Positions 3,234 to 55,580 of a DNA stretch of 64,000 nt are shown one piece after another; positions within the stretch are counted from its first letter, which is position 1, and every line of letters starts with the position of its first letter. The DNA comes from Candidatus Iainarchaeum sp. (lineage in GTDB: Archaea; Iainarchaeota; Iainarchaeia; Iainarchaeales; JAXPJC01): positions 26,747 through 90,746 of the forward strand of contig JACPJC010000006.1 in the NCBI GenBank assembly GCA_016187745.1. Direction: 5' to 3'. The notes beneath the pieces are model-generated. The model was not told the DNA's origin, did no database searches, and was given only the letters and a program-made list of their open reading frames with translations. A program made the position numbers and the translations under genes.

Positions 3234-3275
3234 ATCTTTGTTTTTGATTTTTTATCAAAATATATTTTCTTTTTT

Positions 3276-3365
3276 CAAGGTTTTTTCTTTTTAGAAAGAA
3301 AAAAGCTGTTTTCTTTTTCCAGGTTTTTCTTTTTCGAAAAGAAAAAGCTGTTCAAGACTTTTTCG
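3276..3365 (+). terminator. Tandem pair of about 40-nt units, each a TTTCTTTTT-loop-AAAAAGAAA hairpin plus T-tract
   Basis: Two imperfect tandem copies (caaggttttttctttttagaaagaaaaaagctgtttt and ccaggtttttctttttcgaaaagaaaaagctgttc) directly after the tuf stop. Confidence 0.55.
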
Positions 3366-6120: not shown

Positions 6121-6284
6121 GTTCATTTCTGTTCACATCCCTGCTTATTAACCTGCTCATTCGGTGCATTCGGCCATAAAAAAGGTGTTTTTTGGACATT
6201 TGCCTTGTTCATTCCTGTTCAGCCCCCTGCTTATTAACAGTTCATGTGCATATCTGGCTATGGAAAAAGTGGTTTTTGGGCATT
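6121..6284 (+). repeat. Imperfect tandem duplication (about 80 bp x2) spanning the promoter and start of the surface-protein gene
   Basis: Copy A at 6121-6200 and copy B at 6207-6284 are about 75% identical. Copy B carries the ATG at 6260. Copy A has ATA in the equivalent position. Confidence 0.6.
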
Positions 6285-9999: not shown

Positions 10000-11445
10000 T
10001 TGGTTTTTAGCATGCAAACCTATAATAAAATTTCAGAGGGGATTTATGAAATTCCCAAGGATGCAGGGATGAAACTTCCCGCGCGCATTTATGCTACAGA
10101 GAAGCTGCTGAATGCAATTGAGAATGGCGCAATTCAGCAGCTGAAGAATGTTGCCTCTCTCCCTGGAGTGCAGAAATATGCAATTGGGGAAGCGGACATG
10201 CACTGGGGCTATGGGTTTCCCATTGGCGGGGTGGCGGGGATGAGTGTTGATGGGGGAGTTGTAAGCCCTGGCGGAGTTGGTTTTGACGTAAACTGCGGCG
10301 TCAGGCTGATAAAAACAAACATGGTTCTTTCTGATGTTAAGGGAAAGCTGCGCGAACTGCTGGATGTGCTTTTCAGGGAGATTCCTTCAGGATTGGGAAG
10401 CAAGGGAAAGCTGCGCCTGCAATCCGGGGAGCTGCGCGAGGCAATTGAGCAGGGCGCAAAATGGGCCGTCGGGAAGGGCTATGGGGCTGAAAAAGATTTG
10501 CAGTGCATTGAGGAATACGGCTGCATGAAGCAGGCAGATTCGGCAAAAGTCAGCGCGAGCGCGCTGCAGAGGGGCATGCCCCAATTTGGAACGCTCGGGA
10601 GCGGAAATCACTTCCTTGAAATCCAGCTTGTGGACAAGATTTTTGATGCGGAAACCGCAAAGGCATTCGGGCTGTTTGAGGACCAAATTGTTGTGATGCT
10701 GCATACCGGGAGCAGGGGCTTCGGCCACCAGGTTGCAACGGATTATATTGCAGTAACGGACAGGGCAATGCAGAAATACGGAATTTCAGTTCCCGACAGG
10801 CAATTGGCTTGCGCGCCGATAAATTCGGATGAGGGGCAGGCCTACTTTGCGGCAATGTGCTGCGCAGTTAATTACGCGTTCTGCAACCGCCAGGTCATGA
10901 CCCATTGGATAAGGGAGAGCTTTGCAAAAGTTTTGGGAAATCCCTGGGAGGATTTGGGGATGGGGCTGCTTTATGACATCTGCCACAATGTTGCGAAACT
11001 GGAGGAGCATGAGGTTGAAGGGAAAATGAAGGAATTGCTGGTGCATAGGAAGGGCGCAACGCGCGCATTCCCTGCGGGGAGAAAGGAAAATCCTGAAATT
11101 TATGCAAAAACAGGCCATCCCGCAATAATTCCCGGGAGCATGGGAACAGCAAGCTATATCTGCGTTGGAACGCAGAAGGGATTGCAGGAAACTTTCGGAA
11201 GCGTTGCGCATGGCGCCGGGAGGGTGATGAGCAGGACTTCCGCAACAAGGCAGAGGCGGGGGGAAGAGGTGAAAAAGGCGCTTGAGGAAAAGGGCGAATT
11301 TGTAAGGGGCGCATCTGCCGAGGGATTGGCGGAGGAAGCGCCTGAGGCATACAAGGACATTGATGAGGTTGCGCTTTCAATTGAGCTGAGCGGAATCGGG
11401 AAGAAAGTCAGCAGGCATGTTCCGCTTGCGGTAATGAAGGGGTAG
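10000..11445 (+). CDS. rtcB: RNA-splicing ligase RtcB
   Basis: GGVAGMSVDGGVVSPGGVGFDVNCGVRL and GSRGFGHQ are RtcB signature motifs. The product is 481 aa. Confidence 0.92.
   Translation: MVFSMQTYNKISEGIYEIPKDAGMKLPARIYATEKLLNAIENGAIQQLKNVASLPGVQKYAIGEADMHWGYGFPIGGVAGMSVDGGVVSPGGVGFDVNCGVRLIKTNMVLSDVKGKLRELLDVLFREIPSGLGSKGKLRLQSGELREAIEQGAKWAVGKGYGAEKDLQCIEEYGCMKQADSAKVSASALQRGMPQFGTLGSGNHFLEIQLVDKIFDAETAKAFGLFEDQIVVMLHTGSRGFGHQVATDYIAVTDRAMQKYGISVPDRQLACAPINSDEGQAYFAAMCCAVNYAFCNRQVMTHWIRESFAKVLGNPWEDLGMGLLYDICHNVAKLEEHEVEGKMKELLVHRKGATRAFPAGRKENPEIYAKTGHPAIIPGSMGTASYICVGTQKGLQETFGSVAHGAGRVMSRTSATRQRRGEEVKKALEEKGEFVRGASAEGLAEEAPEAYKDIDEVALSIELSGIGKKVSRHVPLAVMKG
11401..11445 (+). repeat. Left copy of 42-bp direct repeat (rtcB 3' end)
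   Basis: aagaaagtcagcaggcatgttccgcttgcggtaatgaagggg recurs at 12026-12070 with 2 mismatches. Confidence 0.85.
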
Positions 11446-11504
11446 TTTTTTAATGTCTATTGTCTATAATATACTATAGGAAGTTATAGAATAGGAGGAT
11501 TATT

Positions 11505-11753
11505 ATGACTCATTTGACAACAATCCAATTGGACAAGTCTACAAAAAATCAGCTTGACAAGTTGAAGGAATACAAAAGAGAGACCTATGACGAGGTAGTG
11601 AAAAATCTGGTTGAGGTTGCTGAAATTCTAAAAAAAGAGCCCGAATTAAAAGAAGAAGTGTTGGAAGAAATTGCTGAAGCGAGAAAACATATCAGAATGG
11701 GCAAAGGACTGACAACTAAACAGCTAATTGCTGAGCTGGGCATAAAAATATGA
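11505..11753 (+). CDS. Putative antitoxin of RelE/ParE-type toxin-antitoxin pair
   Basis: 82-aa ORF with its own AT-rich promoter and an AGGAGG ribosome-binding site. It overlaps the downstream RelE-like gene by 4 nt (ATGA). Confidence 0.6.
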   Translation: MTHLTTIQLDKSTKNQLDKLKEYKRETYDEVVKNLVEVAEILKKEPELKEEVLEEIAEARKHIRMGKGLTTKQLIAELGIKI

Positions 11754-12013
11754 CATATTCTGTAATCTGGTCGCCCAAAAGCAAAGAGAAACTCGAGAAA
11801 TTTGAAAAGGATGTTGCAGCAAGAATAATCAGGAAGGTTTCAGACATTAGTGAAAATCCTGAGCCGTATCTTATAAAACTTACTAATTCTGATGCATTTC
11901 GCTTAAGAGTCGGGGATTATAGGGTGGTCGTTGACCTGCTGAAAGACAAAAAAGAACTGCATGTAATTACTCTCGGGCACAGAAGAAACATTTACAAAGA
12001 GTTTGGTAGATAG
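11750..12013 (+). CDS. RelE/ParE family toxin
   Basis: 87 aa. The C-terminal ...FRLRVGDYRVVVDLLKDKKELHVITLGHRRNIY... matches the RelE/ParE consensus. It is translationally coupled to the upstream small ORF. Confidence 0.75.
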   Translation: MTYSVIWSPKSKEKLEKFEKDVAARIIRKVSDISENPEPYLIKLTNSDAFRLRVGDYRVVVDLLKDKKELHVITLGHRRNIYKEFGR

Positions 12014-12025
12014 AGATTATAATTG

Positions 12026-12070
12026 CAAGAAGTCAGCAGGCATGTTCCGCTTGCTGTAATGAAGGGATAA
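12026..12070 (+). repeat. Right copy of 42-bp direct repeat; encodes an alternative in-frame RtcB C-terminus VSRHVPLAVMKG*
   Basis: Near-identical to 11401-11445. It translates to the same last 12 residues as rtcB, with one synonymous change and a TAA stop. Confidence 0.85.
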
Positions 12071-14458: not shown

Positions 14459-14567
14459 ACCCTTTTCATCGCTTATATTATATAATATTATTGTAAACTG
14501 TATCCCTCGCGAACCGCACGGGATATAACTACAAAAAACACACGTTTTTTGTTTTTGAAAATGCAGC

Positions 14568-14599
14568 AGGGAAGGTATCGGAAACGCAGTTTCTGATTG
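14568..14599 (+). repeat. Type-1 30-nt palindromic element, copy a (leader of rpl3 operon)
   Basis: agggaaggtatcggaaacgcagtttctgattg. The core ATCGGAAAC-gca-GTTTCTGAT forms a 9-bp stem. It is flanked by aatgcag on both sides. Confidence 0.8.
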
Positions 14600-18660: not shown

Positions 18661-19406
18661 TGATAGAAAAGGCATTCATCAGGCAGGGGATAAAGAATGT
18701 GCAGCTTGAGGATTACATGAGGAAGCAGCTTAAAAGCGCGGGATTCACGCGCCTTGAGATTGTCAAAACGCCTTTAGTAACGAGGATTGTTGTGAATGTG
18801 ACAAATCCCGGGCTTGCGATAGGGAAGGGCGGGCAGAACATAAGGACGCTTACAAAGGAGCTTGGGGAAAAATTCGGGATTGATAATCCGCAATTGGAAA
18901 TAAAGGAGATTGAAAAGCCGCAGCTTGACGCGCAGGCGATGTCGGATTTGCTTTCAAGCCTTATTGAAAGGGGATTCTCATGGAGGAGCGTTGCATTCAA
19001 GATTGTAAGGGATATAATGAACGCGGGCGCATTGGGAGTGGAAATAATAATTTCCGGAAAGCTCGGGGGGAAGGGCGCAAGGAAGAAAAAGCAGAGGATT
19101 GCGCTCGGATACATGAAGAAGGCGGGGGAGCAGACAAGGCTTGTTGATGCGGGAATGAAGACTTCTTACCCGAAGCAGGGCGCAATAGGAATAAAGGTAA
19201 AAATAATAAGGCCTGATGTGATGTTCCCGGATAAAATAAGGATAAGGGACGTAATAGCGAAGAAAAGGGCGGATGAGGAAAAGGAGAATGAGAGAATCGC
19301 AAAAAGCGCGGAAGACGCTGAAAAGGCGCAGGCAAAGGAAGCCCCTGTTGCTGAAGAGGCTGCTGTGAAGGGAGAGGCTGCAGTTAAAATAGAGGAAGGC
19401 AAGTGA
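18660..19406 (+). CDS. rps3: Ribosomal protein S3, with acidic/Lys-rich C-terminal tail
   Basis: KH domain and uS3 C-domain. Confidence 0.92.
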   Translation: MIEKAFIRQGIKNVQLEDYMRKQLKSAGFTRLEIVKTPLVTRIVVNVTNPGLAIGKGGQNIRTLTKELGEKFGIDNPQLEIKEIEKPQLDAQAMSDLLSSLIERGFSWRSVAFKIVRDIMNAGALGVEIIISGKLGGKGARKKKQRIALGYMKKAGEQTRLVDAGMKTSYPKQGAIGIKVKIIRPDVMFPDKIRIRDVIAKKRADEEKENERIAKSAEDAEKAQAKEAPVAEEAAVKGEAAVKIEEGK

Positions 19407-20243: not shown

Positions 20244-20570
20244 ATGGCTGAAGAGCAAAAAAAGGAAGTTATCGGAAACGCAGTTTCTGATTGCAAGGAT
20301 TTGAAATGCCCGGTTCACGGAAGCGTAAAAGTGAGGGGCAATATGTTTGAAGGAATTGCAATAAGGGCAAAGGCGCCGAAAACAGTGATTGTTGAGCGCT
20401 ATCTAATGCAGCATGTGAGGAAATACGAGAGATACAAGAAAGTTAGGTCGAGGATTACGGCGCACAAGCCGGACTGCATTCAGGTTGCTATCGGGGATAA
20501 AGTGAGGATTGGCGAAACGCGCAAGCTCAGCAAGACAAAGAGCTTTGTGGTTATGGAGGTGCTTAAGTAA
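20244..20570 (+). CDS. rps17: Ribosomal protein S17
   Basis: uS17 homology (MAEEQKKEVIGNAVSDCKDLKCPVHGSVKVRG...). The true start is the ATG at 20244 inside the longer listed ORF. Confidence 0.9.
   Translation: MAEEQKKEVIGNAVSDCKDLKCPVHGSVKVRGNMFEGIAIRAKAPKTVIVERYLMQHVRKYERYKKVRSRITAHKPDCIQVAIGDKVRIGETRKLSKTKSFVVMEVLK
20263..20293 (+). repeat. Type-1 30-nt element, copy b, lying inside the rps17 coding sequence (codons 7-16)
   Basis: aggaagttatcggaaacgcagtttctgattg encodes KEVIGNAVSDC. It is identical to the intergenic copies except for one base. Confidence 0.8.
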
Positions 20571-25848: not shown

Positions 25849-26312
25849 AAATGTACGCCGCAATAATGGTAAGGGGATTGATAGGCGCGAAAAAGGACGC
25901 AAAAATGGCGATGAGGCTTATGCGCCTGAACAAGCAGAACCACCTTGTGCTGCTGCCTGAAAATGATAGCAACAAGGGAACGCTCGAGAAGGTCCAGAGC
26001 TATGTTACCTATGGAAAGATTGCGAATGATGTGCTTGCAGGGCTTGTTGAAAAATGGGCAAGGCTCATTGGAAATAAGAAAATTGATGCGGAGTTCCTGA
26101 AGAAAAACAAGTTCGGGAATTTCAATGAGCTTGCAAATGCTCTTATCGATGGGAAAACTTCGCTTGCGGAGCTGCAGATAAAGCCGGTGTTCAGGCTGCA
26201 TGCGCCGAGCAAGGGGTATGAGAGAAAGGGCACAAAAAAGCCTTTTTCACTAGGGGGCGCGCTTGGCCCGAGGGAGAATGAAATAAACAAATTGATTATG
26301 AGGATGATTTAG
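25845..26312 (+). CDS. rpl30: Ribosomal protein L30
   Basis: uL30 homology. Confidence 0.88.
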   Translation: MKMYAAIMVRGLIGAKKDAKMAMRLMRLNKQNHLVLLPENDSNKGTLEKVQSYVTYGKIANDVLAGLVEKWARLIGNKKIDAEFLKKNKFGNFNELANALIDGKTSLAELQIKPVFRLHAPSKGYERKGTKKPFSLGGALGPRENEINKLIMRMI

Positions 26313-26397
26313 AATGAAGGAAGGGAATCAGGATTAACCTAAAACTGAAGGGAAACCTTGGTTTCCCTGCGGTTTGGATGAGGATGATTTAGAATGA
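26298..26397 (+). repeat. 20-bp direct repeat (atgaggatgatttagaatga) flanking a 60-bp insert between rpl30 and rpl15
   Basis: Exact copies at 26298-26317 and 26378-26397. The repeat spans the rpl30 stop codon and the rpl15 start codon. Confidence 0.85.
26318..26377 (+). repeat. Type-2 about 60-nt element, copy A (contains hairpin GGGAAACC-ttgg-TTTCCC)
   Basis: aggaagggaatcaggattaacctaaaactgaagggaaaccttggtttccctgcggtttgg. It has a homolog at 32323-32384. Confidence 0.75.
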
Positions 26398-31450: not shown

Positions 31451-32200
31451 ATGGATGTAAAAAAAATTGCACAGAAGGAAAATACCCTTAAATTCCTTGT
31501 AAGGGGGGTAAATTCCGAATTTGCGAATTCCCTGCGCAGGGCAATAATGGCTGATGTGCCCATACTTGCGATAGAGGATGTTTCAGTATATGAAAATTCC
31601 TCAATATTATATGATGAGTTCCTTACCCAGAGGCTTGCATTGATTCCATTGACAACAGATTTGAAAACATACAAGAAGGGTGAATCCGCTAAAATGAGCA
31701 TCGATAAGGAAGGGCCCTGCACGGTCTATTCAAAGGACATAAAATGCAGCGATCCGAAAATTGAGGTAGCGGACAAGCGCATTCCGATTGTCAAATTGCT
31801 GAAGGACCAGAAATTAAAGCTTGAGATGAAGGCAGTAATGGGCTTCGGGAAGGAGCATGCGAAATGGCAGCCTGCGGTTGTTTCCTACAGGCAGCTTGCA
31901 ACAATAAGCATTGGGAAGGACTGCGACCTGTGCGGGAAATGCATTGAGAACTGCGCAAAGAAGCTTCTGGAGGCAAAGGCAAAGAAGATTGTCCTGGAAA
32001 CGCCGATTGAATGCGATTTGTGCGGAAAATGCAGGGATGTGTGCAACCTGCAGCAGCTTGCGATAGAATACAGCAAGGATGATTTTTTGTTCACTGTGGA
32101 AAGCCACGGGGCCCTTGAGGCCTCTGAAATAGTGGAAAAGGCTGCGGAAATCCTGAAAGACAGGAATTCGGACTTCAGGAAGGAGATTAAAAAATTATAA
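31451..32200 (+). CDS. rpoD: DNA-directed RNA polymerase subunit D (with ferredoxin-like Cys domain)
   Basis: Rpb3/RpoD homology. CDLCGKCIENC...CDLCGKCRDVC cluster. Confidence 0.9.
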   Translation: MDVKKIAQKENTLKFLVRGVNSEFANSLRRAIMADVPILAIEDVSVYENSSILYDEFLTQRLALIPLTTDLKTYKKGESAKMSIDKEGPCTVYSKDIKCSDPKIEVADKRIPIVKLLKDQKLKLEMKAVMGFGKEHAKWQPAVVSYRQLATISIGKDCDLCGKCIENCAKKLLEAKAKKIVLETPIECDLCGKCRDVCNLQQLAIEYSKDDFLFTVESHGALEASEIVEKAAEILKDRNSDFRKEIKKL

Positions 32201-32288
32201 CATTACAATCAGAAACTGCGTTTCCGATACCTTCCTTTGTTTCAAGGGAAACTCGGACGAGGAGATTAATAAATTATAACATTACAAT
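32184..32288 (+). repeat. About 27-bp direct repeat (gagattaa[a/t]aaattataacattacaat) flanking a 52-bp insert at the rpoD 3' end
   Basis: Copies at 32184-32209 and 32262-32288 have 1 mismatch. Each spans the last 5 codons and the stop of rpoD. Confidence 0.8.
32206..32236 (-). repeat. Type-1 30-nt element, copy c (opposite orientation)
   Basis: The reverse complement is ggaaggtatcggaaacgcagtttctgattg. Confidence 0.8.
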
Positions 32289-32322
32289 TATTATGGGAAA
32301 GCCCGGTGGAATCCTGAACCTT

Positions 32323-32384
32323 AAGGGAAAGGGTCAGGATTAGCCTAAAACTGGGGAAAACCGTAGGTTTTCCGCGGTTTGGAT
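32323..32384 (+). repeat. Type-2 element, copy B, ending exactly at tRNA 5' end
   Basis: aagggaaagggtcaggattagcctaaaactggggaaaaccgtaggttttccgcggtttggat is about 80% identical to 26318-26377. Confidence 0.75.
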
Positions 32385-32526
32385 GCAGGGGTACCCAAGC
32401 GGCCAAAGGGGCAGGTGAGTTTTGATTTGAAAAAAACAAAATTCTGCCAAACTTAAGGTCTCTTGAAAAAAGGATGGGAAATCCTGTGGCTTAGTGCCTT
32501 CAAGGGTTCAAATCCCTTCCCCTGCA
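32385..32526 (+). tRNA. Type II tRNA (Leu-like; A73, long variable arm) with intron(s); anticodon tentatively UAA
   Basis: Acceptor GCAGGGG/CCCCTGC. 3-bp D-stem CCC/GGG with an 11-nt loop. T-arm AAGGG-TTCAAAT-CCCTT. Variable arm GGC-TTAGT-GCC. The precursor is 142 nt. The only good anticodon loop is CTTAAGG at 32452-32458, which would require two introns (32417-32451 and 32459-32481). Confidence 0.7.
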
Positions 32527-32535
32527 CACCAATCC

Positions 32536-32558: not shown

Positions 32559-32651
32559 ATCTGGGTTTTACCCCAAAAGAAAATAAAAAATAAAATTCAG
32601 GGAAAGAGAAAATAATTTTCGGAAAAAAAATAAAAAATCGGGAATGAGAAA

Positions 32652-33020
32652 ATGAAAGTTACAGGGCCTACGGAACTCGGAACTCAGGTTCTTATAAGAA
32701 GGCTTGAGAAGCTCGGAAAAAGCAGCGGGCAGGCCATGTGGCTTGACCTTGCGGAAAGGCTGGGAAAGCCGCGCAGGATAAGGCCTTCGGTTAATTTGTG
32801 GAAGCTCGGGAAAATGGCAAAGAAATTCCCGGGAAAAACATTGCTTGTTCCGGGGAAGGTGCTTGGCTCGGGCTCGCTGGATTCCGCGCTTTCAATATGC
32901 GCGCTTGAATTTTCCGCTGGCGCAATGAAAAAAATCTCCGGGCACAAGGGAAAGGCGCTGACGCTGGATGAATTCGTAGGAAAGCCCGCAGATGCGAAGG
33001 ACATTGCAATAATAAAGTGA
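32652..33020 (+). CDS. rpl18e: Ribosomal protein L18e
   Basis: eL18 homology. Confidence 0.85.
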   Translation: MKVTGPTELGTQVLIRRLEKLGKSSGQAMWLDLAERLGKPRRIRPSVNLWKLGKMAKKFPGKTLLVPGKVLGSGSLDSALSICALEFSAGAMKKISGHKGKALTLDEFVGKPADAKDIAIIK

Positions 33021-33451: not shown

Positions 33452-33882
33452 GCGCGGAGCAGAAGGCATCAAAAAAGGCAAGGCGCAAGGGCGTTGTAAC
33501 AAAGGCAAGGCGCAAGACCGCAATAGCGCACGCCATTCTCAGAAAGGGCACCGGGAAAATAAGGGTGAACAGGATGCTCCTTGGAATTGTGCAGCCAAGG
33601 TATGTGCAATTGCTCATAAAGGAGCCTATAACACTTGCGGGGGAGCTTGCAAATGACATTGATGTTGATGTAAGCGTAAAGGGCTCGGGGCAGATGGCGC
33701 AGGCGGTTGCCGCGCGCGGAGCAATAGCAAAGGCGCTGGTCGCATACACCAATAGCCCTAAGCTTAAAAAGGAATTCCTGGATTACAACAGGATGCTTAT
33801 TGTTGATGACATAAGGCAGACCGAGCCCAAGAAGCCTTTGGGAAAAGGCGCAAGGGCAAAGAAGCAGAAATCAAAGAGATGA
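33448..33882 (+). CDS. rps9: Ribosomal protein S9
   Basis: uS9 homology with a basic C-terminus. Confidence 0.9.
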   Translation: MSAEQKASKKARRKGVVTKARRKTAIAHAILRKGTGKIRVNRMLLGIVQPRYVQLLIKEPITLAGELANDIDVDVSVKGSGQMAQAVAARGAIAKALVAYTNSPKLKKEFLDYNRMLIVDDIRQTEPKKPLGKGARAKKQKSKR

Positions 33883-33895
33883 CAAACATGGGGTT

Positions 33896-33917
33896 AATAA
33901 GGGCATTATGCCATTAT
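33896..33917 (+). promoter_or_regulatory. Palindromic motif AATAAGGGCATTATGCCATTAT upstream of rpoN
   Basis: Near-perfect inverted repeat. The same motif occurs at 40678-40700. Confidence 0.5.
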
Positions 33918-33954
33918 AGCAGAAATCAAAGAGGTAAAATTCAGAGGTGAAAAA

Positions 33955-40570: not shown

Positions 40571-40677
40571 GCGGATTAGTTTGATTTAAAAACCTTAAGG
40601 CGCAGGGTATATTATACGTTTTGATTCTGGGTTGCATCTTTTTTTGATAAAACCTGTGATAAAACGATGAACCCCGC

Positions 40678-40700
40678 AATAAGGGCATAATGCCCTTATG
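40678..40700 (+). promoter_or_regulatory. Palindromic motif AATAAGGGCATAATGCCCTTAT flanked by GAACCCC direct repeats, upstream of rpl7ae
   Basis: Perfect 10-bp inverted repeat. GAACCCC at 40669-40675 and 40700-40706. Confidence 0.5.
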
Positions 40701-40753
40701 AACCCCAAGCAGGAAAATTGTTTGGGCAGGGGCGAGAAAAGGAGGTTTCTGAT

Positions 40754-48438: not shown

Positions 48439-48459
48439 GGGAAGCTAATAATGAAAATG

Positions 48460-48490
48460 AGGAAGGTATCGGAAACGTAGTTTCTGATGA
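48460..48490 (+). repeat. Type-1 30-nt element, copy d (between rpoE and spt4)
   Basis: aggaaggtatcggaaacgtagtttctgatga has one C-to-T change relative to the other copies. It is flanked by atgaaa on both sides. Confidence 0.75.
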
Positions 48491-48500
48491 AAGGTGTCTT

Positions 48501-48722
48501 ATGCAAAAAGGGAAGGCATGCAGGAGCTGCAGGAAAATAATTGAGGAAAGCAACACAGACAAATGCCCGAACTGCGGGAACAATGCGTTTACAACCTTCT
48601 GGAGAGGGTATGTTGTTGTAATCAATCCGGAAAACTCTGAGCTTGCAAAAAAAATGGGAATTTCCGCGGCGGGGAAATATGCGCTGCATATCAGCAGATG
48701 GATGAGGTTGAGGTTTCCGTGA
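48501..48722 (+). CDS. spt4: Transcription elongation factor Spt4 (RpoE'')
   Basis: CRSCRKIIEE...CPNCG zinc ribbon plus the ...AKKMGISAAGKYALHI NGN-binding domain. The 3' end overlaps rps24e by 25 nt. Confidence 0.8.
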   Translation: MQKGKACRSCRKIIEESNTDKCPNCGNNAFTTFWRGYVVVINPENSELAKKMGISAAGKYALHISRWMRLRFP

Positions 48723-54932: not shown

Positions 54933-55580
54933 TTATTGCCCAGGCTTGTAAGCGGCCTTTTTGCACACGGCATTGAACCTGCACGCAGCGCACTTCCATT
55001 TCTCATCCGCCGCGGAGAAATCAGCATTTCCCGAGAAGAGCGCATGCATGCGCGAAATAAGCCCCTCAGCTGCAAGCTTTGCGTCCTCATTGAACCGCTC
55101 CGCGAAAACGAATTTCTGAGATTCTGAATTCTGGACCGCATTGCAGATTTCCCCTTCCCATCTGTAGGCATCGGAAAAGCACAGGCAATATGCGCGCAGC
55201 TGGTTTATGTCTGCAGCCTTTGCGCTCAGGGAGGGCTTGTTGTCTATTATGAGGGCGCGCTCCCTGAACAGCTGGATTTCATCAATTTTTCCGGTTAGCC
55301 TGTATTTTTCGGATTTTAGTGAAAACTCGCGCATGCTGAAGGGCTCAATTTCCCCGCGGAGCAACTTATTTATGTGAGTTTCAATAGGCTCCTCTATCGG
55401 GGCTGCCTTTTCCCTGAAAGCCTGCTCAAGCTCCGCGTGCTTCTGCAGGCCTGAAAGCATTTCTTTTGTCGCCGGCAATTTTATGCGCAGGACATGCTGA
55501 AGGTAAAGCTGATACTCGCAGAAATCCTGCGTGTGAAGCCAGCTTATGGGGATTAAATCGCGCTTTATGAGCTCAAACAT
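54933..55580 (-). CDS. Cas4-like/DUF83 PD-(D/E)XK nuclease with Fe-S Cys cluster (stand-alone)
   Basis: N-terminal Cys in WLHTQDFCEYQLYL (as in Cas4 YCPR-type motifs). The C-terminal CAACRFNAVC gives the C...CxxCxxxxxC pattern. Central D/E-x-K region. Confidence 0.6.
   Translation of the reverse strand: MFELIKRDLIPISWLHTQDFCEYQLYLQHVLRIKLPATKEMLSGLQKHAELEQAFREKAAPIEEPIETHINKLLRGEIEPFSMREFSLKSEKYRLTGKIDEIQLFRERALIIDNKPSLSAKAADINQLRAYCLCFSDAYRWEGEICNAVQNSESQKFVFAERFNEDAKLAAEGLISRMHALFSGNADFSAADEKWKCAACRFNAVCKKAAYKPGQ

Follow-up and report, generated by a model that had tools for sequence, protein, structure and literature searches.

A hairpin module flanked by a duplicated gene end where rpoD meets a tRNA gene in a Diapherotrites (DPANN) archaeon

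The 64,000-nt stretch of archaeal DNA analysed here (the window) holds a ribosomal-protein supercluster, which comprises EF-2, EF-1alpha, rtcB, the L3 operon to S17, L30, L15 and SecY, and which continues with S13, S4, S11, rpoD, a tRNA gene, L18e, L13 and S9. At the boundary between rpoD, the gene for archaeal RNA polymerase subunit D, and the tRNA gene, a short hairpin module lies between two copies of the rpoD 3' end (Table 1), and this structure is the subject of the present study. The nearest named homologues of RpoD and S17 were from metagenome-assembled genomes of 'Candidatus Diapherotrites', and the S17 protein has a 100% identical counterpart in an NCBI metagenome-assembled genome. 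RpoD homologues carry PF01000/PF01193, several of them being named Diapherotrites RpoD, and the C-terminus of the window's protein (...DFRKEIKKL*) agrees with homologues in relatives, the TAA of rpoD falling within the first copy of the repeat. An earlier inspection of the DNA letters (the sequence-only reading) had described a 52-bp insert with an inverted palindromic element at this place, flanked by a duplication of about 27 bp that includes the rpoD stop. The duplication and its stop are real; however, the direct repeat, AGGAGATTAA[A/T]AAATTATAACATTACAAT, is 29 nt long with 1 mismatch and a start-to-start spacing of 79, and the 27-nt version starts at 32183 rather than 32184. An insert of 52 bp is obtained with the 27-nt repeat, but with the 29-nt repeat the insert is 50 nt (32210-32259).

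The inverted orientation of the palindromic element was borne out, as the palindrome ATCGGAAACGCAGTTTCTGAT lies on the minus strand at 32208-32228; it occurs in 4 copies in the window, where 0.00 are expected. The palindrome is part of a 31-nt unit, termed type-1 here, whose CTGAT end abuts repeat copy 1 with an overlap of 2-4 nt. When folded as the + strand, the rpoD insert forms two adjacent hairpins, the second of which arises where the purine-rich flank of the module pairs with the extra 20 nt of the insert. No open reading frame (ORF) was present in the 50 nt between the repeat copies, and a scan found no terminator-like site at 32208-32250; the + strand stem of the module has an A-C mismatch and a tail of CCUUCCUUUGUUU, and it does not show the G+C-rich stem and T run of an intrinsic terminator. 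In a flank shuffle test of 55 distinct type-1 contexts, the rpoD repeat scored 24.5, and none of 300 shuffles was as good. A short, non-coding hairpin module entered a few bases past the rpoD stop, about 29 bp of the target was duplicated, and copy 1 still terminates rpoD.

Table 1. Positions of the modules, repeats and genes discussed in the text (window coordinates)
Feature	Position	Strand	Remarks
rpoD, archaeal RNA polymerase subunit D, 249 aa	31451..32200	+	From ORF list and translation; stop TAA 32198-32200
Repeat copy 1	32181..32209	+	Last 6 rpoD codons, stop and 9 nt beyond; functional gene end
Insert, 50 nt	32210..32259	+	Missing from relative L003
Type-1 module, 31 nt, AAAGGAAGGT-ATCGGAAAC-GCA-GTTTCTGAT	32208..32238	-	Inverted relative to rpoD
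Second small hairpin, CUUCCUUUG-UUU-CAAGGGAA	32233..32249	+	Purine-rich flank of the module paired with the insert's extra 20 nt
Repeat copy 2	32260..32288	+	Relic rpoD end, A-to-T variant
Type-2 hairpin module	32318..32384	+	Ends exactly at tRNA +1; 88.9 bits by covariance model
tRNA gene, intron of about 60 nt	32385..32527	+	Found by ARAGORN with introns allowed only
Type-1 in L3 operon 5' untranslated region (UTR)	14567..14597	+	Enclosed by outer stem; contig L087 breaks here
Type-1 in S17 gene, 39-nt in-frame insertion	20253..20291	+	No target duplication; peptide EQKKEVIGNAVSD
Type-1 upstream of spt4	48458..48488	+	12 nt before ATG at 48501
L30/L15 junction	26298..26397	+	20-nt perfect repeat (26298-26317, 26378-26397) across L30 stop and L15 ATG; 60-nt type-2 insert
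rtcB 3' end	11405..12069	+	40-nt repeat (11405-11444, 12030-12069, 95% identical) around 585-nt toxin-antitoxin cassette
rtcB cassette genes	11505-11753; 11750-12013		DUF7557 antitoxin-like; ParE toxin
S9 3' end insert	33863..33933	+	16-nt perfect repeat (33863-33878, 33918-33933), 39-nt insert, third palindrome family TAAGGGCATTATGCC

The rpoD region was compared with three close relatives (L001, L002 and L003; RpoD 89-95% identical). Labels of this kind, with three digits (e.g., L003 or L079), denote the contigs compared and not ribosomal proteins. L003 has an empty site with a single repeat copy (...AGGAGATTAAAAAGTTATAACATTACAAT|TATTATGGGAAAGCC...), and the insertion in the window is therefore derived, in agreement with the earlier view of an insertion with a duplicated gene end. 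In L002, rpoD is followed by a 57-nt hairpin module of a second kind (type-2), then by copy 2 and by the downstream sequence seen in the window; copy 2 of L002 is identical to that of the window across all 29 nt, the T variant included, and the repeat that flanks the type-2 module is about 20 nt. In L001, the rpoD stop is followed directly by a type-2 module, inside which the contig ends. Thus, rpoD does carry a duplication and an insertion, both of them are derived, and relatives differ from one another at this site.

The sequence-only reading had named a lack of further examples together with assembly duplication as the circumstances under which its claims would fall, and a false duplication or chimeric join at a multi-copy repeat is indeed what an artefact would look like here; we consider it extremely improbable. 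Contigs from 3 other sequencing runs contain an identical rpoD and the rpoD-stop/CATTACAAT/type-1 junction, and these end inside the module. The contigs stop there because a 31-mer (GGAAGGTATCGGAAACGCAGTTTCTGATTGT) is common to the L3 5' UTR copy, and assemblies with k=31 break in type-1, which is the behaviour that an artefact would call for, as is the presence of the right half of the insert (32235-32259) in one assembly only. The L18e-anchored contigs begin past the tRNA, and the right junction is outside their range. Against an artefact, the left junction is present in three runs, copy 2 and the right-hand context recur in the independent relative L002, and the sequence past the module is unlike that of all three other window copies. 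Furthermore, the insert at the L30/L15 junction was 100% reproduced in contigs from other runs (L085 and L086), and the gene order around rpoD agrees with that in L003.

Over copy 2 and the 48 nt that follow it, the window and L002 are 97.4% identical, compared to 77% for the third codon positions of rpoD, and the S11-rpoD spacer is unalignable between the two. This conservation is far above the neutral level, and copy 2 is therefore under purifying selection. Copy 2 preserves the sequence context that originally lay upstream of the tRNA gene; it is probably the promoter-proximal region of that gene, given an A-rich stretch and TTATAA, and the ancestral tRNA promoter may have overlapped the last rpoD codons. 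As L002 shares copy 2 and the T variant but has a type-2 module, the rpoD duplication probably predates the present type-1 cargo. One duplication would have taken place once L003 had split off, in an ancestor common to the window lineage and L002, and it was probably made by a type-2 insertion, like those at other junctions; later turnover of the cargo would have left type-2 in L002 and an inverted type-1 with a small fold-back hairpin in the window. A decayed type-2 as the 3' tail of the window insert was considered and set aside, as the local alignment was not significant (179 of 2000 shuffles were as good).

The rpoD insertion is one of at least 10 of its kind at gene junctions in this lineage. 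The insertion between L30 and L15 is likewise derived, because the site is empty in L079 and L080, and it was reproduced in independent assemblies, with L085 matching the window over 14,867 nt at 100%. In L079, repeat-flanked type-2 modules are present at L5/S14 (15 nt) and L6/L32e (22 nt), and the window is empty at both; in L078, a type-2 module at L14/L24 has the upstream repeat copy only, the module being truncated by the contig end. A type-1 module with a 22-nt repeat was found on an unrelated metagenome contig (L026/L055), where a gene's final seven codons (ISMELRK*) lie in copy 1, from which copy 2 differs at synonymous positions only. Together with the S9 3' end, where the insert contains the palindrome TAAGGGCATWATGCC and provides the current stop codon of S9, these junctions are further examples, and the refuting condition of the sequence-only reading that none would exist does not hold. 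The lengths of the target duplications are 0, 14-16, 15, 20, 22, 22 and 29 nt. A second copy of the third palindrome family lies at 40676-40707, in the opposite orientation and with a 9-nt flanking repeat (ATGAACCCC), downstream of the Glu/Gln-tRNA synthetase gene.

Because further examples exist, a common insertion process is well supported; however, the shared integration or repair mechanism proposed from the letters is supported in substance only; the S17 copy was inserted without a duplication, and no integrase, transposase, reverse transcriptase or Cas1 was found among the 20 large non-ribosomal ORFs of the window. The duplicated stretch is the junction, which takes in start or promoter signals of the downstream gene as well as the 3' end of the upstream gene. 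The insertions left every gene unbroken, since duplication of the target brings back the stop, start and promoter signals that overlap there, and they are retained because each repeat copy serves one neighbouring gene. In packed operons, the survivors would be those duplications that restore the overlapping stop, Shine-Dalgarno, ATG or promoter signals of both genes. Close direct repeats of the flanking kind number 18 in the window as against about 1.5 in shuffles; not all of these are insertions, and the pair at 19401/19431 was ruled out as one, being ordinary L29 coding sequence. A separate 32-nt direct repeat, 88% identical and with its copies 86 nt apart, was noted at 6121-6238, upstream of and into the start of a gene for a 955-aa Ig-like surface protein.

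Three cases (rpoD, L30/L15 and rtcB) had been attributed to one process. This is well supported for rpoD and L30/L15, but the toxin-antitoxin case at rtcB, whose insert is 585 nt, may represent a different, integrase-type process. The cargo at the rtcB site in L083 differs from that of the window, which suggests an integration hot spot. In L083/L084 (1-273), upstream of a GNAT gene, the reading frame of an ORF continues into 51 nt that duplicate the rtcB 3' end (...IGKKVSRHVPLAVMKG*).

The type-1 module is a sharply bounded unit, AAAGGAAGGT-ATCGGAAAC-GYA-GTTTCTGAT. Its 3' boundary is the same nucleotide in all copies (41 distinct contexts), and the 10-nt flank is conserved in 40 of 41, though the search did not demand it. 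The stem includes a G-U wobble on the forward strand only, and in a variant copy from L013 a U-A pair has given way to C-G, a compensatory change. In the two repeat-flanked copies, the downstream repeat begins 0 nt past CTGAT, and 0 or 20 extra nt are present at the 5' side; the repeat-less insert in S17 has 8 extra nt 5'. The latter insertion, in the context MAE-EQKKEVIGNAVSD-CKD, adds 39 nt (13 codons) that L078 and most Diapherotrites S17 proteins lack. Within the type-1 of S17, L079 (1426-1803) and L081 (3280-3657) carry a further 51-nt palindromic insert in frame (aaaaaatcggc...gccgatttttta), so that still another hairpin element is nested in the module. The S17, L3 and spt4 copies were inspected by hand together with their folds; no bulge-helix-bulge motif (a 4-bp helix between two 3-nt bulges) was seen at the insert boundaries, and an intron of that kind was rejected. 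As a lead only, the inverted type-1 resembles the 16S rRNA 3' terminus (helix 45 and the anti-Shine-Dalgarno tail; 0 of 3000 shuffles, and p = 0.005, against a reference sequence that is not the host's), and the 3' half of type-2 shows a weaker likeness to the same reference, with the same standing.

The 21-nt core of type-1 has exact matches in 13 GTDB genomes, 55 metagenome contigs and 1 IMG/VR contig, and the 31-nt module is identical in Diapherotrites, Micrarchaeota and Bathyarchaeia. On DPANN-like contigs, type-1 is located in 5' UTRs, in in-frame N-termini (L042 and L058) and after stop codons, and in L017 and L013 it ends exactly at tRNA +1. Most matches are Bathyarchaeal, and there the integrase gene is partitioned, the module encodes the C-terminal part (KEGIGNVVSD) of its N-terminal fragment, and it stops 1-24 nt short of an attachment (att) core formed by the 3' end of a tRNA gene (at least 11 different tRNA genes). 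L011, which was checked, has 44-nt att repeats, with Int(C) starting in att and Int(N) ending in att; the reconstituted protein has a CcdA-like ribbon-helix-helix N-terminus and a weak match to PF16795 (archaeal phage integrase) of 20.8 bits, where the Pfam cut-off is 27. The module is inverted in L010 and lies on the Int(C) side, with CTGAT again toward the att core. Neither type-1 nor type-2 had an Rfam match at gathering thresholds, and only noise was seen up to an E-value of 10; INPHARED phages and PLSDB plasmids gave a single chance-level match to type-1, the type-1 string was not found in the literature text searched, and a review of archaeal tyrosine recombinases does not mention such an att-adjacent site. 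A single-protein method found no relatives of the L011 integrase in IMG/VR.

These associations bear on an integrase-based explanation, in which a provirus or plasmid with an SSV-type tyrosine integrase used the rpoD 3' end as its att site, the repeats are attL and attR, and the element was mostly deleted later. Type-1 would then be an att-proximal accessory site, for example an operator for the ribbon-helix-helix N-domain of the integrase. SSV-type integration does duplicate gene 3' ends as attL/attR (PMC8371274, PMC7253208), and rpoD resembles it in that the gene 3' end is duplicated, the target is intact and the repeat falls within 20-50 nt. More than 40 loci (Bathyarchaeia and the IMG/VR provirus) have type-1 in the Int N-terminal fragment with CTGAT 1-24 nt from the att core; the att repeats and reconstituted integrase of L011, its PF16795 match being weak, and the orientation in L010 follow the same pattern, and the geometry at rpoD is alike (type-1, a repeat, and an intact target gene convergent with the module). 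Repeats of 22-51 nt suit archaeal att cores, the same site holds differing cargos in relatives (window and L002 at rpoD; window and L083 at rtcB), and a toxin-antitoxin pair, as at rtcB, is a typical passenger of mobile elements.

Nonetheless, we judge an integrase origin of the rpoD structure, although it is the leading alternative, to be unlikely. No integrase or element body lies between the rpoD repeats, Int(N) and Int(C), both present in L011, are not beside them, and the targeted gene encodes a protein and not a tRNA. A screen of the 20 large non-ribosomal ORFs of the window detected no integrase, transposase, reverse transcriptase or Cas1, and no RAYT/HUH transposase. Inserts of 30-75 nt would need repeated deletions exactly to the module boundary, with 0 nt left upstream in L026. 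Type-2 occurs at five or six junctions in close relatives, each with its own repeat, which would call for a new attP every time; the S17 copy has no repeat; and a palindrome with a 3-nt spacer is not itself the core of a tyrosine recombinase. Selection on a promoter accounts equally well for the finding that the window and L002 have an identical copy 2.

The type-2 module has a length of about 60-75 nt and consists of a small hairpin (AGG-N5-CCU) and a long hairpin (AAACUG..GGRAAACC-loop-GGUUUYCC..CGGUUU), with one compensatory pair among seven sequences. The covariance model found only two copies in the window, and there were 0 matches in IMG/VR. All complete copies end in ...GGTT[T/C]GG(A/T)(K), against either the downstream repeat or tRNA +1, and their 5' starts vary by up to about 20 nt. 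Inverted repetition between the two ends is absent from type-2 (AAGGGAAAGGG... and ...CGGTTTGGAT) as well as from type-1 (AAAGGAAGGT... and ...CTGAT).

Downstream of rpoD, a type-2 module adjoins tRNA +1 in the window and in L003; it is kept in the same place in L001 and L003, and L002 shows its first bases before the contig ends. The tRNA gene was missed by default ARAGORN and by Rfam gathering thresholds, and the label Phe(GAA) given by ARAGORN with introns allowed is doubtful; the gene is conserved in L003 with a different intron, and tRNAs of L013 carry introns of 55-103 nt. A decayed duplicate of the tRNA 5' end flanking the pre-tRNA type-2 copy was proposed and was not significant, and the notion that all tRNA genes of these organisms have such leaders proved false, since L013 has others without. 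On the 3' side of the tRNA is a perfect hairpin (CTTTTCTTTT-AGG-AAAAGAAAAG), similar ones being present 3' of tRNA T-loops in L017 and L034. Tandem A/T-rich direct repeats of 40-43 nt were also observed at 32585-32653, before L18e, and at 3257-3343, in the spacer after EF-1alpha.

The combination of a precise 3' end, a ragged 5' end and a variable duplication of 14-29 nt points to a polar, target-primed copy-in of the kind used by short and long interspersed elements (SINEs and LINEs). On balance, and by a modest measure, we favour reading the rpoD structure as the trace that a mobile element left when it inserted between rpoD and the tRNA gene of this Diapherotrites (DPANN) archaeon, by polar target-primed copying in trans. 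The modules would be moved by an enzyme encoded elsewhere, which would copy a molecule whose 3' end is fixed, across nicks that are widely staggered; the junctions between module 3' ends and repeats often share 2-5 nt of microhomology. A candidate donor is a pre-tRNA 5' leader freed by RNase P, and a tRNA 5' leader is a plausible donor because both module types end exactly at tRNA +1; as an RNase P product, such a leader RNA would end in ...GGUUUGGAU or ...CUGAU. SINE/LINE retroposition shares with these insertions the variable duplications, the precise 3' end with microhomology, the ragged or truncated 5' ends, the occasional insertion without duplication and a possible small-RNA donor linked to tRNA; however, the modules have no A-tail, no reverse transcriptase was identified among the screened ORFs, and type-2 copies are all co-oriented with transcription. 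A SINE/LINE-type process is not known from archaea.

Several observations weigh against copy-in of this kind. The type-1 insertion in S17 has no duplication, and of the 55 distinct type-1 contexts only 2 had detectable flanking repeats. The type-1 copies of Bathyarchaeia go with the att sites of integrases and not with tRNA leaders, and the type-2 copy of the pre-tRNA could itself have been inserted there instead of being the donor, other tRNA genes of L013 having no such leader. The uniform orientation of type-2 with transcription is not predicted by random retroposition. The right half of the rpoD insert comes from one assembly, and the promoter role of copy 2 is read from conservation and sequence alone. 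Lastly, none of the 20 ORFs screened matched a reverse transcriptase, transposase, integrase or Cas1, and the mechanism is therefore one that we infer.

Templated repair or template switching, in which a break or stalled fork is resolved by copying at microhomology and re-priming upstream duplicates local sequence, would also leave short shared sequences at junctions, and such sequences of 2-5 nt are present (ATTG/CAAT at rpoD, GGATG or GGAG at type-2). It would be in keeping with the missing terminal inverted repeats and variable duplication lengths, and the fold-back hairpin beside the rpoD type-1 resembles the product of snap-back synthesis. This process should give variable ends, yet the 3' boundary is fixed in every type-1 (41 contexts) and in every complete type-2 copy, and local repair cannot explain an identical 31-nt module in three phyla; we therefore hold it to be decidedly improbable.

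Casposons target gene 3' ends and make duplications of 14-15 bp. An off-target integration by a CRISPR or casposon Cas1, with staggered attack by a spacer-sized fragment leaving a one-spacer 'neo-CRISPR', was weighed and is very unlikely in our estimation. The sizes are suggestive (a 31-nt module with duplications of 22-29 nt), and a Cas4-like PD-(D/E)XK nuclease gene is encoded at 54933-55580 (-); it is solitary, with no other cas match among the ORFs screened. The cargo is a repeated family and not a unique spacer, inserts of 30-585 nt and duplications of 14-40 nt give no sign of a molecular ruler, S17 has no duplication, and no cas1, cas2 or CRISPR array was seen in the window.

Among known small repeats, the repetitive extragenic palindromes and bacterial interspersed mosaic elements (REP/BIME) and the SPRITE elements of bacteria are alike in being imperfect palindromes of 20-40 nt that are multi-copy, occur at gene ends and between cistrons in either orientation, can look like terminators and break short-read assemblies. 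The modules described here are palindromic and multi-copy as well, yet some copies lie within coding sequences in frame, target duplications of 14-29 nt are present, and no RAYT/HUH transposase was seen among the window's screened ORFs. REPs are species-specific, in contrast to type-1, which is identical across phyla. [quoted passage not shown] MITEs are nonetheless similar as small, non-autonomous, mostly intergenic insertions with target duplications and stem-loops (PMC10969869). Rickettsia palindromic elements enter essential genes of a reduced genome without shifting the reading frame and so add a translated peptide, and the same is seen here in S17 (EQKKEVIGNAVSD), where orthologues lack the insertion, and in L042 and L058; those elements are bacterial and about 150 bp long (PMC10969869), but the modules are archaeal, measure 31-39 nt, and are also found in UTRs, in integrase genes and beside tRNAs. 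A link to SSV-type systems is the abutment of type-1 on the att core in Bathyarchaeia, whereas type-2 occurs at many different junctions. Taken together, the modules are best filed as short interspersed palindromic elements that are unusual for their long, variable target duplications and for a 31-nt unit shared with the att regions of provirus integrases across phyla.

A broader proposal is offered tentatively, as a possibility that we would not yet count as probable: the modules may form an undescribed class of archaeal hairpin elements of 31-75 nt that spread by target-primed copying of a small RNA, with the tRNA leader as candidate donor, and that leave duplications of 14-29 nt and in-frame insertions in essential genes. 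Linked to this, type-1 may be a portable recognition site that places CTGAT against an SSV-type att core, and if this is true, such a role would tie provirus integration mechanistically to the mini-insertions.

DPANN archaea have tiny, packed genomes that are usually held to be poor in active mobile DNA. Here, within one shallow clade whose RpoD proteins are 89-95% identical, short hairpin modules have repeatedly invaded the operon that is the most conserved in the cell, and this provides a natural example of insertion tolerance in streamlined genomes. The modules also carry a warning for annotation and assembly, as they account for contig breaks, an S17 protein that is longer by 13 codons, and short phantom ORFs. 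The identity of type-1 across phyla and its fixed place by an SSV-type att core were not found in Rfam, INPHARED or PLSDB nor, as a string, in the literature text searched, and type-1 thereby offers a testable handle on site recognition by archaeal integrases or on a new mechanism of mobilisation.

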